A DNA stretch of 64,000 nt from an uncultured Clostridia bacterium (GCA_944377415.1 CALWEW010000001.1:35604-99603); one strand, 5' to 3'. Positions 19,301 to 63,163 are shown, counted from the first letter of the stretch. Notes: a model not told the origin generated them from the sequence alone. A program made the numbers and translations.

Positions 19301-19617
19301 AATTTTTTATTAGACAGCATAATACTAAAACTTATGTTTTGCCTAATTTCGTAAATTAAACAAAAAAACGAAAGAATTTTGTCTAAATTTGTAAAAATAT
19401 TTATACTCACGCAAACGCCAATTCGCACGCGCGCGTATTGCCCGAAAATCCTAGTCGATTAATTATATCTTAAAAGCAAATTTAAAGTCAAATAATATTA
19501 AGACTTTTTCAGCCTTTTTTCTACATTTTTTAAGTATTTTTCTACACTTTTATACAAGCAAAAAATTGCCCTTTTATCGCGCTTACCCTCCTTTTCCAAA
19601 ACTCTATAAAAAACAAA

Positions 19618-19643
19618 AAAATAGCCGATTAAACGGCTATTTT
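19618..19643 (-). terminator. Intrinsic terminator overlapping the degV stop
   Basis: AAAATAGCCG-attaaa-CGGCTATTTT with a T-run on the minus strand. Confidence 0.7.
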
Positions 19644-20485
19644 GTGTAGTATAAAATTCCAATAGTGTTTGGGCCACAGTGCGTACCAACAGTACACCCC
19701 GCATCTGTTTCGATTACTTCGTCAAATATATTCTTAATTCGCTCACGGATACCATCAACAATTTCATTCTTTATCGGTGTGTGCGTGATAAAACAGCGGG
19801 TGCGGTCTATATTCGGGAAGTTTAGCAAAATGTAGTCAACATACTTAGGCACTATTTTTTCGAACTTGCCCATCAGTTTGCTTCCGACCTTCATTTCGCC
19901 ATCGCGCAAAACAATAATCGGCTTAATTTGAAGAAGTGATGCGCTAAATTTTGCCACCCCAGAACAGCGCCCGCCTTTGTGAAGGTAGTCCAACTTGTCA
20001 ATCACAAAACTTGCTTGCACAGCCCCTCTGCGTTCTTTCACTTTTTCAAATACCTCAGCCGCAGAAAGCCCCTTGTCGACAAGTTCTTTTGCGTAGAGCA
20101 TTTGAAGCCCTACACCAGTCGAAAGTGATAGCGAGTCGATGACAAAAACCTTGTCCGCAAACAACTGCGCAGCGGTCAAAGCATTTTGATAAAGCGTACT
20201 AAATTTAGACGAAATTGCAAAGTGAATAATGGCATCATATCCGCCATCACTTGATAACTGTTCACGGAAAAACTCCTCAAACTCAACAGGGTTGTTTGCC
20301 GAAGTTTTTGGCAAAACTGGGTTCTCTTTTAGGAATTTGTAAAACTCGTCTTGCGATATATCACGGGCATCACTGTATTCCTTATCCCCCAAAGTAATAT
20401 GTACTGGCAAAATCGCAAAATTGTTCTTTTCAATCAGCGCACGACTAAGATCGCAACTTGAATCGGCTGTGATTTTGATTTTCAT
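19637..20485 (-). CDS. degV: DegV family fatty-acid-binding protein
   Basis: KIKITADSSCDL start, SSKFSTLYQ, IDSLSLSTG, LDYLHKGGR, HCGPNTIGI; 282 aa. Confidence 0.95.
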   Translation of the reverse strand: MKIKITADSSCDLSRALIEKNNFAILPVHITLGDKEYSDARDISQDEFYKFLKENPVLPKTSANNPVEFEEFFREQLSSDGGYDAIIHFAISSKFSTLYQNALTAAQLFADKVFVIDSLSLSTGVGLQMLYAKELVDKGLSAAEVFEKVKERRGAVQASFVIDKLDYLHKGGRCSGVAKFSASLLQIKPIIVLRDGEMKVGSKLMGKFEKIVPKYVDYILLNFPNIDRTRCFITHTPIKNEIVDGIRERIKNIFDEVIETDAGCTVGTHCGPNTIGILYYTK

Positions 20486-20597
20486 AGGCTCACTCCTGCA
20501 AATATTTAGTTTTAATAACTAAATTATACCTAAAAATACAAAAAAAATCAAATAAAAAAAGAAAATAAAGTAAAATTTATTCTCTTTTAATTATATT

Positions 20598-22004
20598 TTA
20601 ACCATAAATTTTGTCATGCAAATAGTCTTTTAGTTCTGCAATTTTTACGCGTTCTTGTACCATTGTATCACGGTCGCGAACAGTTACACACCCGTCGACC
20701 GCGCTGTCGAAATCAAATGTAACACAATATGGTGTGCCGATTTCATCTTGACGGCGGTAACGCTTACCGATTGAACCTGTTGTATCATATTCACAACGGA
20801 AGTGCTTGTTCAAATCTTTGTATAAATTAAAAGCAAGTTCTTCTAATTTCTTGCTCAAAGGCAATACCGCTACTTTTATAGGCGCGATTTTCGGCTTAAA
20901 GCCCATTACAACACGCTCATCGCCGTCATCAAGTTTTTCAACACGGTATGCACTGCAAAGTGTAGCAAGTAGCATACGGTCAACCCCGACACTCGGTTCA
21001 ACCACATAAGGAATGTAAGTTTCGTTTGTATACGGGTCAGTATAACTTAAATCTTCCCCACTAAATTCAGCATGACGCGAAAGGTCATAATTTGTGCGGT
21101 TTGCAATTCCCCACAACTCGCCCCAGCCAAAAGGATACTTAAATTCTATATCAGTAGTCGCCGCCGAATAGAATACGAGTTCTTCGGGACTGTGGTCGCG
21201 GAAGCGCAAAGCATCTTGCTCGATACCGATGTCGACTAAAAAGTCAAAACATGCTTGACGATAATATTTGTGCCACTCGGGCGCACTCTTTGGCTCACAG
21301 AAAAACTCCATTTCCATTTGCTCAAATTCACGCGTGCGGAAAATAAAGTTACCAGGAGTAATTTCGTTACGGAATGCCTTACCGATTTGACAAATACCCA
21401 TAGGCAACTTGCTGCGGGTTGCGCGTTGCACATTTTTAAAGTTAACGAAAATTCCACCAGCAGTTTCAGGACGCAAGTAAACAGTGTTTGTATTGTCTTC
21501 TGTAACACCGATAAAAGTCTTGAACATAAGATTAAACTTGCGAATAGGTGTAAAGTCGCAGTGCTTGCAGTCAGGACAAGGAATCTTATTTTCTTTAATG
21601 AAGTTTTCCATTTCGGTTTGGCTCATCGCCTCGACACTGCCGACTTCGTTTTTAATTCCTGCCAACTCGCGATTGTGAAGCCATTCTTCAATTAACTTGT
21701 CTGCTCTGTGGCGCGTGTGGCAGTTACGACAATCGATGAGCGGGTCGCTGAAACCAGAAATGTGGCCACTTGCTTCCCAAACACGCGGGTTCATAATAAT
21801 TGCGCTATCAAGTCCAACATTGTGCGGCTCCTGTTGCACAAATCTCTCCCACCACGCATTTTTCAAATTGTTTTTCAACTCGACACCAAGCGGGCCATAG
21901 TCCCAACTATTGCTAAGCCCACCATAAATCTCACTACCAGCAAAAATAAAACCACGATTTTTGCAAAGTGAAATAATTTCCGTCATGTTTAAGTCGTCTT
22001 TCAT
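20598..22004 (-). CDS. glyQS: Glycine--tRNA ligase, homodimeric class IIa type
   Basis: [59 protein letters not shown]. Confidence 0.97.
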
Positions 22005-22199
22005 GATTTGTAAAATCCTTTTAGAAGTAAATAATTCAAAATATTGCTTTAAATATTATCATATTCTTGCCATTATTTCAAGCGGTTTTGCATAATTTAA
22101 AATATGTATTAAAGCCCCGTTTCCACCCTATATCGAATTATTTAATTAATTATTTTTACTTGTTAATTATTTTTACTTGAAATTATACAAAAAACAAAT

Positions 22200-61163: not shown

Positions 61164-61247
61164 CAAATTTAAAACACACATACTCTATAATTTAAGTACA
61201 GAACCAAGTAATTATTTTAAAATTTCATTACCAAACTTAAAATTATT

Positions 61248-62078
61248 TTACTTCCAAAACTTCATAGTTTTTCGATTAATCAAGCGTTCACCATCTTTCC
61301 CATGAAAATCGCTACCACCGCTCATAAGCAGATTATTATCTTTACAGAAATTTTCTAGAAATTCGATTTGCTCCTGCGTGTGCTTTGGATGATAAACTTC
61401 AATACCATCAAAACTTTTTTCAACAGCCAAATTTAATAAATTGTTGACATCAACGCTCGCTTTATATCCATAAGGGTGAGCAAGAAAAATCTTGCCCCCG
61501 TTATCATGAACAACTTTTTTCACTTCATCAACCGAAGCCCACAAAAAACTCATATCTAAATAAAGTTTAAAATCCTTGTTCGTTGTGCTATTTCTATAAA
61601 AATCACTGCCATCAATCAACTCAATTCCCAAAATTTTCGCATTTTCAGTAAAACGAGAGAAATTATTATAAACATTAATATGAGCAAACTCTTGTTGGCT
61701 ATTCCACGGAAAATCTTTTTCGTATTTAATATTATATTTATCCATCAATTCGTACAATTTATCACGAATGATAGTTTGCCTGTGCGTTACTGTTCCAAAC
61801 TTTTTTGTAGCCCATTCTTGCACTGGCTGCGCATCAAAATCGTATGCTAAAATTTCAAAAGTTACACCATTGTGCGAAACATCAATTTCCATGCCACTGA
61901 TAACTTTGCCACCATAATATTTTTCTTTGTTAATGTTATCAATTAATACATGCGCCAACGCAGAATTATGGTCTGTTATTGATATAGCATCTATTCCAGC
62001 ACGCTCCGCAAATGTTAGAACCTCCTCAACAGAATAAATTCCGTCAGCAGATATGTTAGAATGTATGTGTAAATCCAT
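61248..62078 (-). CDS. PHP-domain metallophosphoesterase
   Basis: DLHIHSNISADG, ITDHN, SGMEID, LAHP, GIEVYHP.H, GGSDFH. Confidence 0.93.
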   Translation of the reverse strand: MDLHIHSNISADGIYSVEEVLTFAERAGIDAISITDHNSALAHVLIDNINKEKYYGGKVISGMEIDVSHNGVTFEILAYDFDAQPVQEWATKKFGTVTHRQTIIRDKLYELMDKYNIKYEKDFPWNSQQEFAHINVYNNFSRFTENAKILGIELIDGSDFYRNSTTNKDFKLYLDMSFLWASVDEVKKVVHDNGGKIFLAHPYGYKASVDVNNLLNLAVEKSFDGIEVYHPKHTQEQIEFLENFCKDNNLLMSGGSDFHGKDGERLINRKTMKFWK

Positions 62079-62140
62079 AAAAAACTCCTTTATTTTTTAA
62101 TAATTTTAACTAAATAGGGTATAAAATGCAAGTTATTCTC

Positions 62141-62974
62141 TTAAAGTTCGTATTCTATGCAATGATTCAACTCACTCACAACTCTCGCTGTATCCTTTTT
62201 TGACGATTTTAGTTTTGCTTTATTCTCTTTTGATAACGAATTATTACGCAAAATTGATACAGTTTCAAAAACTGCCAGCGAACTTAATTCACCTGCTAAA
62301 ATTCTTTTGGTATCAATTCGCCTTGCAATAGTCATAGCACGCTTTGAATTCTCTAAAACTTCATTATACACATCACTAATACTAGCCTTTTTGCCAACTG
62401 TTTTTTGTGTTTCGATTAACATTTCGTACATCTCAGCGCAAGCATTATTCAAATAGTAATCTCTATTTAGCACAGTTTTTGCAATATTTGATACATCTTC
62501 TTTCAAGCCTTTTTTCAACGAATATTGACGAGCAGAAGCGACATGACCCGCGATTATTAGCCTATGTCCTTCTTGTTTTGAAAGATATACACCTAAATCT
62601 TGTACGCCTTTTAAATATTTTTGCAAACATTCCTCATACTCTGCATTCTCAATTATATCATACACATAGCGCTCATACTTATTAAGCCCAAGATAAAATC
62701 CCAAATCTATCGCATCTGCGAGATTAATTTCTCCCATTTCCAATAAATTTTTTATTTCCTTGTTAGAAAATGGAAAGCCCATTTCCTTCATATTTTTATA
62801 GTATTTGTGTTTTCTTTTTTGAAATATTTCACTATTTTGCTGAATTATATCTTTTTGTTTCTCAAAGTCCAAATTTTCAAAACTTCTCGGTAAACTAATT
62901 TCTTCTATAAAAAATTCTTCCATGATATCCTCTAATGCCATTATAACAAATATGAAATGATTTTTCAATACCAA
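62141..62974 (-). CDS. Hypothetical protein (about 260-277 aa; start uncertain)
   Basis: Long ORF; a downstream ATG after GAGGA (MEEFF) is a plausible start; no motif recognised. Confidence 0.7.
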   Translation of the reverse strand: MVLKNHFIFVIMALEDIMEEFFIEEISLPRSFENLDFEKQKDIIQQNSEIFQKRKHKYYKNMKEMGFPFSNKEIKNLLEMGEINLADAIDLGFYLGLNKYERYVYDIIENAEYEECLQKYLKGVQDLGVYLSKQEGHRLIIAGHVASARQYSLKKGLKEDVSNIAKTVLNRDYYLNNACAEMYEMLIETQKTVGKKASISDVYNEVLENSKRAMTIARRIDTKRILAGELSSLAVFETVSILRNNSLSKENKAKLKSSKKDTARVVSELNHCIEYEL

Positions 62975-63110
62975 AATTCAAACACTATTCCAAAAAACTA
63001 ATTGTTATTATAATTTTAAAACATACTGCGCCTTTAAAAATAGAAAAAACTATCTTTTCTATTTCAATCACCATAAAACAAGGATATGCTATACTTTAAA
63101 TAAAAAACCA

Positions 63111-63163
63111 TGCATAGTATATAAAAAAACGATACTATGCAACAAAATTTGCATGCATAGTAC
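63111..63163. repeat. Three TGCATAGTAY copies in alternating orientation
   Basis: 63111 (+), 63132 (-), 63154 (+). Confidence 0.85.

Follow-up and report, generated by a model that had tools for sequence, protein, structure and literature searches.

TGCATARTAY, a sharply defined dispersed DNA word in a family of gut Clostridia and a putative protein-read tag

Introduction

The closest described systems are short DNA words and repeats of several kinds. The DUS of the Neisseriaceae is a 12-mer whose reader is the minor pilin ComP of the type IV pilus, and the uptake system of the Pasteurellaceae, which have the USS, likewise uses a type IV pilus. The REP/BIME elements of proteobacteria, which go with RAYT, and the dRS3/NIME of Neisseria form extragenic clusters of alternating orientation near gene ends, while the stoperators of cluster A mycobacteriophages are asymmetric 13-bp repressor sites, present in 20-35 copies and strictly oriented with transcription. 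The 10-mers of DUS reach observed/expected ratios of 16-65 (bioRxiv 10.1101/2025.10.24.684340), and the Rickettsia palindromic element (RPE) forms palindromes and sits in frame within unrelated housekeeping genes of a reduced genome (PMC10969869).

Here we describe the statistics, anatomy, phylogenetic range, turnover and in-frame inserts of TGCATARTAY, a word in the genome (G000) of a Clostridia bacterium from an uncultured Gram-positive lineage that, unlike the DUS/USS hosts, is not known to undergo natural transformation. Like DUS/USS, the word is short, sharp, found on both strands and over-represented (37 compared to 16-65 for DUS); it has some inverted pairs that look like terminators, genic copies that are substitution-made and limited to certain reading frames, enrichment at core genes, absence from an integrated island, and related species that share it. 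It differs in a density of exact copies that lies 10-20 times below that of known DUS genomes (bioRxiv 10.1101/2025.10.24.684340), in its frequent tandem arrays, overlapped palindromes and many copies in in-frame inserts, and in being identical in several genera, without dialects found, while many genera have none. With REP/BIME and dRS3/NIME it shares alternating short repeats, mosaic spacers of several repeat types and hairpins that may act on transcripts, but it comes without RAYT, is a 10-bp unit rather than a 20-40-nt palindrome, has one third of its copies in genes, and is stable across genera whereas REP sequences vary between species. The likeness to stoperators is that of a dispersed, short, asymmetric word in spacers with one protein reader (putative for our word); stoperators, however, are phage-borne and oriented, whereas our word belongs to the chromosome, occurs in either orientation and is nearly absent from viral contigs. 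In-frame inserts, a reduced genome, the lack of a known transposase and a copy number that varies between species recall RPE (PMC10969869), yet RPE is about 100-150 bp long and conserved over its full length in sequence and peptide, whereas the copies described here share 10 bp only and many are single or substitution-made.

Results

In the window, the whole 64-kb stretch of DNA that was analysed, TGCATARTAY occurs 17 times compared to 0.87 expected from dinucleotide shuffles (sd 0.90, maximum 4), and 0 of 100 shuffles matched the observed count. An earlier reading of this DNA (the sequence-only reading) had listed 16 copies, with about one expected by chance; all 16 lie where it placed them, as do its two 9-mers at 19317 and 24147, and a 17th copy was found at 46041. 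It had noticed no copies in the three giant genes, and the window scan confirmed that they hold none. The whole genome of 1.26 Mb contains 169 TGCATARTAY copies, and TGCATAGTAC is its top-scoring and most over-represented 10-mer, with 66 copies (29 forward, 37 reverse) compared to 1.77 expected from an order-3 Markov model, an observed/expected ratio of 37. The claim of a non-random and previously undescribed dispersed repeat is upheld, also at the level of genome-wide k-mer over-representation. Variation is tolerated at two positions only, G/A at 7 and C/T at 10, all other single-base variants being at or near background in the genome count. With its preferred 5' TA, TGCATARTAY contains the 8-bp palindrome TATGCATA, followed by GTAC. 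An extension to '...CRT', ascribed to many copies, turned out to be local to the window and is found genome-wide in just 11 of the 169.

The copies in the window are as follows.

19317..19325, + strand: 9-mer GCATAATAC, a partial copy without the first T, located 17 nt beyond where the giant ORF 11759-19300(-) starts
22200..22333, + strand: five same-strand copies (22200, 22247, 22278, 22311, 22324) plus, at about 22259, a TTTTGCGAATAA box; the array is flanked by the upstream gene's terminator-like hairpin on one side and by the proS promoter region (gene 20598-22004, -) on the other
24132..24156, + strand: direct pair with a 15-bp period (TGCATAGTAC cgta aGCATAGTAC), directly after the bidirectional terminator hairpin 24103-24131 and between convergent neighbours, peroxiredoxin 23409-24080(+) and ORF 24180-25229(-)
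25567..25576, - strand: single copy TGCATAATAC in the spacer that separates ORF 24180-25229(-) from the giant gene 25855-40308(-)
45356..45481, - strand: in-frame insert of about 120 nt in the GlpA-like gene 44516-46045(-), with an inverted pair at 45408-45417(+) and 45432-45441(-)
46041..46050, + strand: single copy over the GlpA-like start codon; the - strand reads GTATTATGCA, in which ATG is the start
50587..50619, no single strand: inverted pair GTACTATGCA-N13-TGCATAGTAC and then a T run, 7 nt past ORF 49966-50580(+); terminator-like hairpin with a 13-bp stem (-15.8 kcal/mol, z -3.9), followed by UUAUUUUUU
61142..61163, - strand: direct pair with a 12-bp period (TGCATAATACcgTGCATAGTAT) between glycosyltransferase 59668-60918(-) and the PHP-domain gene 61248-62078(-), with no significant RNA folding
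63111..63163, no single strand: three copies alternating + - +, 27 nt after the CvpA-like gene 63190-63921(-); on the - strand a 16-bp hairpin and then a U run (-20.4 kcal/mol, z -4.3)

Zero copies lie in the integrase island, a low-GC region of the window at 51.7-59.5 kb. As the sequence-only reading had proposed, inverted pairs may double as terminators, those at 50587-50619 and 63111-63163 giving hairpins of 13-16 bp and then U runs; genome-wide, 12 of 19 non-overlapping inverted pairs have a T-rich tail, and most loci are single copies or direct arrays.

Genome-wide there is one cluster per about 5.7 kb, and the spacing is clumped rather than even (CV 1.24). The word is present in convergent, tandem and divergent spacers, with the highest density between convergent genes (1.03 per kb), and several arrays sit in the gap between a terminator and the next promoter. 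It had been supposed that all intergenic copies lie downstream of a gene's 3' end. This is contradicted by 11 divergent spacers and by the 55 of 169 copies, about one third on our crude ORF maps, that are genic; in tandem spacers, moreover, there is no significant closeness to the end of the upstream gene (23/38 in the first half, p=0.26), and the apparent link to 3' ends arises mostly because the word is intergenic. Clusters are denser in spacers between two core genes (0.59 per kb) compared to spacers without core flanks (0.23 per kb). The layouts comprise single copies, tandem copies 12-13 bp apart, overlapped 16-bp palindromes and hairpin pairs, with inverted arrangements of both kinds (-> <- and <- ->), and among 96 strict loci 51 are single-copy and 17 are direct-only arrays. 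Among one-orientation clusters, 43 have the GTAYTATGCA form on the leading strand and 23 have it on the lagging strand. Orientation towards gene starts divides 71 to 58, and the distance is not fixed, varying between 18 and more than 1000 nt. The small strand preference and the lack of a fixed distance to start codons point to recognition at the DNA level.

In coding frames the word reads MHST or STMH/Q, and also VLC or YYA, and coding copies often lie in species-specific in-frame inserts, which measure 30-40 residues across GlmS, MurC, MurJ and the GlpA-like enzyme. The latter is an FAD-dependent oxidoreductase whose Pfam DAO domain spans the insert site. Its insert of 40-42 aa, with the peptide ...GGMHSTTKNDSTMHIK..., the variant TGCGTAGTAT at about 45468 and A-rich degenerate units, is found in G000 only; the 15 other gene-bearing species join residues 188 and 231 directly, and the alignment has a 40-aa gap opposite the insert in five orthologues. 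The copies at 45408 and 45432, previously counted as non-intergenic, thus lie inside a 120-nt in-frame insert of a real gene, and as a pair they form an RNA hairpin of -16.6 kcal/mol. A neighbouring oxidoreductase gene carries an independent in-frame insert in the sister species G016 only. When genic copies were compared with the motif-poor species G003, 65 were assessable: 40 stand at aligned protein positions where G003 has other residues (NHTV, SKIV and IDSM opposite MHST) and 15 in inserts or unalignable stretches.

Among the relatives, a partial sample, 16 of 17 species of the genus are enriched, with 17-107 exact copies compared to 0-1 for the reversed control word. The exception is G003, with 4 copies, in which no over-represented 10-mer replacing the word was found in the 400 kb scanned. 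Enrichment of the identical word extends to several further genera within the family, with 43-123 copies in g35 and 5-25 in g9, g51 and g62, and no dialects were found across enriched genera; many genera have 0 copies. The word is practically absent from viral contigs. In G024, a genome of the sister genus, start codons follow three of the copies at 19-20 nt, and the adjoining genes are unrelated in function. G000 and G016 have a median protein identity of 80%, and the arrays common to both have kept their 10-mers while the spacers changed, and the sharing is above chance, with 3 spacers compared to 0.4 expected and 7 genes compared to 1.4. At proS, G016 has a homologous array with conserved unit order and diverged spacers, the array of G007 differs and the other 13 species have none. 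For the copy at 46041, at the glpA start, a counterpart was found at a single orthologous locus, L006 (TGCATAATAT). At both glpA and proS, most species lack a copy. A separate repeat, the heptamer (AATTAGS)n, forms truly young arrays in two sister species only, while the 10-mer spans many genera.

Discussion

Our data suggest that a conserved protein with sequence specificity, belonging to this Clostridia family, most likely reads the word. Its presence both between genes and in frame inside essential proteins makes it look like a maintained tag, not a gene-end signal, and we tentatively favor a double-strand DNA tag for a putative protein reader, made in place and kept by drive or selection, where both the reading by protein and the maintenance are inferred and the function is a predicted one. 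Copies would arise in place, some by point substitutions and others by local duplication of 11-13-bp units, direct or inverted, and would be gained wherever the DNA tolerates them, in every spacer type and in variable protein linkers. Once present, the 10-mers would be preserved as the surrounding DNA diverges. Sites are gained and lost between species, and genomes range from about 0 to more than 100 copies. Such population behaviour would fit a tag under biased transmission (drive) or selection on the word, as for DUS/USS, and would not fit a terminator signal, a promoter, a REP/RAYT element or a MITE, with inverted pairs probably co-opted secondarily as intrinsic terminator hairpins. The label 'DUS-like' given earlier is fairly apt for this behaviour (sharp, on both strands, substitution-made, core-enriched, with terminator-like pairs) and is not supported as a statement of membership, in view of the missing type IV pilus/ComG ATPase, the absence of a prepilin motif in the search, the 10-20 times lower density and the common tandem arrays. 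A canonical DUS/USS was rejected since the type IV pilus/ComG ATPase is missing family-wide (PF00437, PilB/ComGA, in 0 of 25 family genomes, while larger relatives have one) and a regular-expression search gave no prepilin motif; ComEC and DprA are present in the family but universal in the order. No reader was found among the candidates: ComEC, DprA, a VirB4-like ATPase, a phage-type portal and ParB each occur throughout the family, G003 included, and therefore none of them tracks the word. Further points weigh against a tag: the density is low and the spacing clumped, the tandem register of 11-13 bp is atypical of DUS/USS and resembles cooperative protein-binding sites, genomes with 5-25 copies could hardly benefit, and the same word in distant genera could mean horizontal spread of a mobile system, not conservation.

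Another reading, which we regard as doubtful, takes the word as an ordinary cis-acting host site whose arrays, maintained locus by locus through selection, are bound by a nucleoid-associated protein, a transcriptional insulator or roadblock or a global regulator, the genic copies being tolerated spill-over. Direct repeats of 12-13 bp (11 bp in G013) and 16-bp palindromes would suit cooperative or dimeric binding, yet a near-invariant exact 10-mer is unusual for regulator sites and the copies inside essential enzymes lie where a roadblock would harm. The peak density between convergent genes and the arrays between terminator and promoter would also suit such sites. Some arrays and the composite box keep their position between species, but most loci do not, and G003 has lost the word with no replacement found in the 400 kb scanned. 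Genera with 5-25 copies match a regulon in size and the three G024 copies keep a similar distance from start codons, although the genes beside them have no common function. Two specific candidates were rejected: parS/Noc-type sites, as six near-canonical parS adjoin parB on contig C22 and each genome, G003 too, has one ParB-family gene; and a sigma-70 promoter or single-regulon operator, given the 71 to 58 orientation, the variable distances and the non-conserved glpA and proS sites.

It is unlikely that the word is a non-autonomous mobile micro-repeat (REP, RPE or MITE-like) that is copied by an enzyme and spread horizontally between gut genera. Such spread would explain the patchy range and the lack of dialects, and related genomes range from 0 to 123 copies with bursts in two genera; however, the 10-mer spans many genera while the young (AATTAGS)n arrays stay in two sister species, it is denser near core than accessory genes, and it is nearly absent from viral contigs. 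In-frame insertion into housekeeping genes of unrelated kinds is reminiscent of RPE (PMC10969869), but many copies are substitution-made at aligned codons. While spacers grow as mosaic blocks of several short repeats and inverted pairs resemble terminal repeats back to back, there is no conserved body, no terminal-repeat logic, as inverted pairs of both kinds (-> <- and <- ->) occur, and no target duplication: an all-against-all comparison of 132 loci gave matches of 15-45 bp, confined to arrays, and filled compared to empty spacers showed mosaic blocks with no target duplication. The long repeats of the genome are paralogous surface-protein genes. Neither is there a Y1/RAYT transposase, PF01797 being absent from G000 and from 13 of 17 genus genomes. 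The REP affinity suggested by the sequence-only reading therefore does not hold, with no RAYT, a non-palindromic 10-bp unit instead of a 20-40-nt palindrome, half of the loci (51/96) single-copy and 55/169 copies genic. Termini of an IS/MITE family were rejected as well, since inter-locus similarity ends at the arrays and neither conserved body nor target-site duplication was found. As for RPE, in-frame inserts exist but share 10-bp units only, and a phage origin was tested and not supported.

We consider it quite improbable that the word is a self-DNA tag for a pilus-free route of DNA exchange. The family, reduced in genome, has lost the ComG/type IV pilus but retains ComEC and DprA, along with a relaxase-less type IV secretion-like machine fixed in the chromosome and a phage-type head module that is passed on vertically. 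Export, packaging, import or recombination would favour DNA that bears TGCATARTAY, and molecular drive would then carry the word into spacers and into those regions of essential proteins that tolerate it. If true, the word would represent the first case outside the Proteobacteria of a signal for uptake or transfer specificity, with a new kind of receptor.

A role at the RNA level, as intrinsic terminators or as 3'-UTR hairpins stabilising the upstream mRNA, is highly improbable. The pairs 50587-50619 and 63111-63163 do fold well with U runs and 12 of the 19 non-overlapping inverted pairs have T-rich tails, but the 51 single and 17 direct-only loci of 96 give no hairpin, copies lie in divergent spacers and untranscribed terminator-promoter gaps, spacer copies have no strong orientation to transcription, and no Rfam family matches. 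Finally, spacers and word are both AT-rich, but a chance or compositional artefact is refuted by the shuffles (0/100), the Markov model (66 copies of the top 10-mer compared to 1.8) and the cross-genome counts, as the count of the reversed control word is 0-3 in each genome and G003, of similar composition, has just 4 of the word.

A tag of this kind would be a DNA-level signal that rewrites proteins, through MHST and STMH/Q peptides and inserts in GlmS, MurC, MurJ and the GlpA-like enzyme, which bears on the annotation of such genomes and on how 'low-complexity inserts' of their proteins are understood. The word may also serve as a cheap marker for binning and foreign-DNA detection in these genomes. 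At 10 bp and almost invariant it is unusually tractable, and because copy numbers among relatives span 0 to more than 100, a comparison of their gene content could name the reader. If a protein does read the word, it would mark a system that spans the genome in a large family of uncultured gut Clostridia with small genomes, for which DNA exchange, chromosome organisation and repeat propagation are candidate processes.

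Results

A sharply defined word, over-represented across the genome

The sequence-only reading had counted 16 matches to TGCATARTAY; all of them are present in the window together with a seventeenth at 46041, against an expectation of 0.87 and a maximum of 4 in dinucleotide-preserving shuffles. The excess extends to the whole genome under study (G000, a metagenome-assembled genome of 1.26 Mb in 52 contigs, 37% GC, in which the window spans C1:35604-99603). It holds 169 copies, and of all its 10-mers TGCATAGTAC scores highest, at 66 occurrences against 1.77 expected under an order-3 Markov model. 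Only two positions exchange freely, 7 (G or A) and 10 (C or T); a change of A to G at position 4 or of T to C at position 8 accounts for a few occurrences, and the remaining single-base variants are near background. The preferred flanks are a 5' TA and a 3' T or C; joined to the 5' TA, the core forms the palindrome TATGCATA, after which comes GTAC. Shorter sequences contained in the word are ATGCAT, GTAC and AGTACT. The extension to CRT that had been described for many copies is local to the window, being found at 11 of the 169 copies genome-wide. A literature search for the word returned primers as its sole matches.

Arrays without an element body

With a relaxed pattern the count is 234 copies, grouped in 132 clusters, of which 71 are single and the largest has six. 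Clusters have a mean interval of 5.7 kb and a clumped distribution (CV 1.24). Direct neighbours are spaced by 12 or 13 bp in 28 of 59 cases. Most inverted neighbours overlap by four bases to give the 16-bp palindromes TGCATAGTACTATGCA or GTACTATGCATAGTAC, and others enclose loops of 8-15 nt. The direct register is 11 bp in another species of the genus (G013) versus 12-13 bp here, and the unit is therefore the 10-mer and not a fixed dimer. In an all-against-all comparison no locus similarity was found past the array edges, apart from a sub-class defined by TTTTGCGAATAGTTTT. IS or MITE ends were rejected as a source, since similarity does not extend beyond the arrays and the long repeats of the genome are paralogous surface-protein genes rather than insertion sequences.

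Composite modules (two 10-mers, N5 and TTTTGCGAATAGTTTT; examples from about a dozen loci)
Window ~22259
C27:6578-6620
C17:1534-1572
C16:21896-21934
C3:61577-61615

These modules keep their position in the sister species, G016. The TTTTGCGAATAGTTTT box includes CGAATA, which resembles the -10 element of SigH/ComX-type promoters, and several modules have no downstream gene.

Placement relative to genes, strands and terminators

It had been proposed that the intergenic copies all lie downstream of a gene 3' end. This does not hold genome-wide: on a crude ORF map, used in place of gene calls, 55 of the 169 fall within genes (0.05 per kb) and the others are intergenic, eleven clusters occupy divergent spacers, which contain no gene end, and clusters in tandem spacers lie closer to the end of the upstream gene in 23 of 38 cases, which is not significant (p=0.26). 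Intergenic density is 1.03 per kb in convergent, 0.6-0.7 in tandem and 0.52 in divergent spacers. Copies are oriented 71 against 58 with respect to gene starts, which lie 18 to more than 1000 nt away, and a promoter or operator was rejected for want of any rule of orientation or distance to genes. Of 66 one-orientation clusters, 43 have the GTAYTATGCA form on the leading strand, a share close to that of genes (71%), and a strongly polar replication motif such as KOPS or Chi was set aside, the ratio being only 43:23. Position and orientation thus argue against a gene-end signal, a promoter and a strongly polar replication motif, and recognition appears to be of double-stranded DNA.

Inverted pairs, described earlier as forming a terminator-like stem, do fold: those at 50587-50619 and 63111-63163 give stems of 13-16 bp with U runs behind them, and a T-rich tail follows 12 of the 19 non-overlapping inverted pairs of the genome. 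The five-copy array at 22200-22333 is flanked by the terminator-like hairpin of the upstream gene on one side and the proS promoter region on the other, and the stretch that holds it is probably untranscribed. No Rfam family, T-box included, was found in the window apart from tRNAs, among them a tRNA-Pro with the unusual anticodon AGG at 48508-48584, called by both ARAGORN and Rfam.

Copies inside genes

The copies at 45408 and 45432, the two non-intergenic ones of the earlier count, sit in a real gene for an FAD-dependent GlpA-like oxidoreductase with a BFD domain. Residues 188 and 231 of this protein are adjacent in all 15 other species having the gene, and in alignments the insert (40 residues, 120 nt) is present only in G000. 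The sister species has an insert of its own, 32 residues long and carrying three copies, in the adjacent oxidoreductase gene, which has no copy in G000. In-frame arrays also occur in other genes, among them those for GlmS, MurC, MurJ and a MurD-like ligase. One orientation of the word encodes MHST or MHNT and the opposite one STMH/Q, VLC or YYA, and a stop, TAG or TAA, blocks the third sense frame. Compared with the motif-poor species G003, 40 genic copies lie at aligned positions where G003 has different residues, so these copies arose by substitution, and 15 lie in inserts or unalignable stretches. Long low-complexity inserts are found in housekeeping and other proteins of the genome, and some of them lack the 10-mer altogether, so that tolerating inserts is a general trait of these proteomes.

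Long N/Q/S/T/K-rich low-complexity inserts in G000
C26:11467-13338, GlmS
C37:4670-6460, MurC-like
C2:2779-5385
C10:25403-27955

Phylogenetic range and turnover

The exact word is present in 16 of the 17 species of the genus at 17-107 copies, where the reversed control word gives 0-1. The exception, G003, has 4 exact copies and, over 1.3 Mb, 49 copies of the relaxed pattern, about background; a different dialect was rejected there, as no substitute over-represented 10-mer appeared in the 400-kb sample scanned. Across 151 genomes of the family (0.6-1.6 Mb each), a second genus, g35, is strongly enriched (43-123 copies) and g9, g51, g62, g8, g31, g67, g37 and g60 moderately so (5-25 copies); the word is absent from many other genera of the survey. 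In other families of the order it is at background level.

The sampling of relatives covered parts of their genomes: 300 kb of G016, 390 kb of the sister-genus genome G024 and 1.3 Mb of G003. Proteins of G000 and G016 have a median identity of 80%. Of 10 motif-bearing syntenic spacers the two species have 3 in common, where chance would give 0.4, and of 25 motif-bearing genes they have 7 in common, where it would give 1.4. In the shared arrays the 10-mers are intact and the intervening spacers have diverged. The glpA and proS loci have no copy in most species, and array-bearing and array-less spacers differ by mosaic blocks of several short repeats, with no target duplications between them. 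Cluster density is 0.59 per kb between two core genes compared with 0.23 between non-core genes.

G024 has few copies, of which 12 lie in 110 kb (C8:175000-284000, locus set L144-L158) around a GC-skew sign change at ~262 kb; in all 12, GTACTATGCA is carried by the plus strand left of ~267 kb and by the minus strand beyond it. The one-strand pattern recurs on contigs of G095; it could reflect polarity towards the replication terminus or simply be a consequence of gene direction.

Search for a reader

The likeness to DNA uptake sequences had suggested a look for uptake genes: ComEC and DprA are encoded in G000 and in every genome of the order, and neither a PilB/ComGA-type ATPase (missing in 25 of 25 sampled family genomes; larger relatives have one) nor, by pattern search, a prepilin was found. 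The canonical route for reading uptake sequences is therefore missing. ComEC is short in the genus, at about 540 aa compared with 700-800 aa in relatives. Y1/RAYT transposases are missing from G000 and most of the genus, and a REP/RAYT system was rejected for lack of a Y1 transposase. A VirB4-like ATPase, a phage-type portal and a single ParB are family-wide, G003 included; ComEC, DprA, the ATPase and the portal, being universal in the family, were discarded as correlates of the word, and so was ParB. Six near-canonical parS sites, TGTTTCA(C/T)(A/G)TGAAACA, lie within 2 kb (C22:13434-15403) in long spacers beside parB (C22:11928-12200), with four 10-mer copies interleaved; with this separate cluster and a single ParB, parS/Noc sites were excluded as the identity of the word. 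The ParB ORFs of the family are 50-80 residues longer than those of the order's other families. Phage origin was rejected, since a search of 2.9 million viral contigs gave a single occurrence of the 16-bp palindrome. Subtracting the gene content of G003 from that of G000 left 401 ORFs without a homologue.

Other features of the genome

A low-GC (30%) island at 51723-59537 of the window, between tRNA-Leu(CAA) and tRNA-Arg(CCT), holds no copy of the 10-mer.

Genes of the island (window positions)
Cu/Zn superoxide dismutase
56089-56856, T5orf172/GIY-YIG-like protein
57940-59079 and 59080-59352, split tyrosine integrase ORFs

A second dispersed repeat is a heptamer, (AATTAGC/AATTAGG)n, in tandem arrays of 3-5 units. 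The arrays are intergenic throughout, frequently form inverted pairs and are absent from the window. Among the 151 family genomes they are confined to G000 (39 matches to a 21-mer) and G016 (146), and co-variation with the word was rejected on this ground.

Heptamer arrays in G000 (with about 55 more spacers)
C1:6391-6506
C17:1330-1492
C16:21844-21864

At C10:5451-15918 lies a phage-type head module that encodes a virion protein and a portal in addition to two paralogues of the major head protein. Nearly every family genome has one copy of the portal, whose identity tracks phylogeny (72-85% among species of the genus, 51-57% across the family and 44-47% to other families). This suggests a domesticated phage-like module, inherited vertically and resembling gene transfer agents.

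Discussion

Our tentative preference is to read the word as a double-strand DNA site for a putative specific protein, created in place and then kept by drive or selection. We lean this way because the 10-mer is near-invariant and has no element body, its copies originate by substitution and local duplication, and their placement is limited by tolerance; moreover, the word is kept as its flanks diverge, is gained and lost between species and is biased to core regions. In these features it behaves as DUS and USS do, half of which lie in terminators and which show reading-frame bias within genes (bioRxiv 10.1101/2025.10.24.684340). Membership of that class is nevertheless not supported, because pilus machinery is absent, copies are 10-20 times less dense and tandem arrays are frequent.

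Binding of the arrays by a protein serving a host function is less probable, though it ranks next: the 12-13-bp register of direct copies and the conserved position of the composite modules would suit it, and the turnover of most loci between species would not. A mobile micro-repeat system with a putative enzyme is slightly less probable still; mosaic differences between spacers would be compatible with it, and the missing target duplications and Y1 transposase tell against it. The in-frame inserts also recall Rickettsia palindromic elements (PMC10969869), but these are conserved over a length of 100-150 bp. A role at the RNA level only, to which the terminator-like stems might point, we regard as very improbable, given the copies in divergent spacers and a five-copy array that is probably untranscribed. 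With a reversed control word at 0-1 copies, an artefact can be dismissed.

Under the reading of a site maintained on double-stranded DNA, the putative protein would recognise the 10-mer, new copies would arise in place through substitution and local duplication, and these would then be kept by drive or selection.
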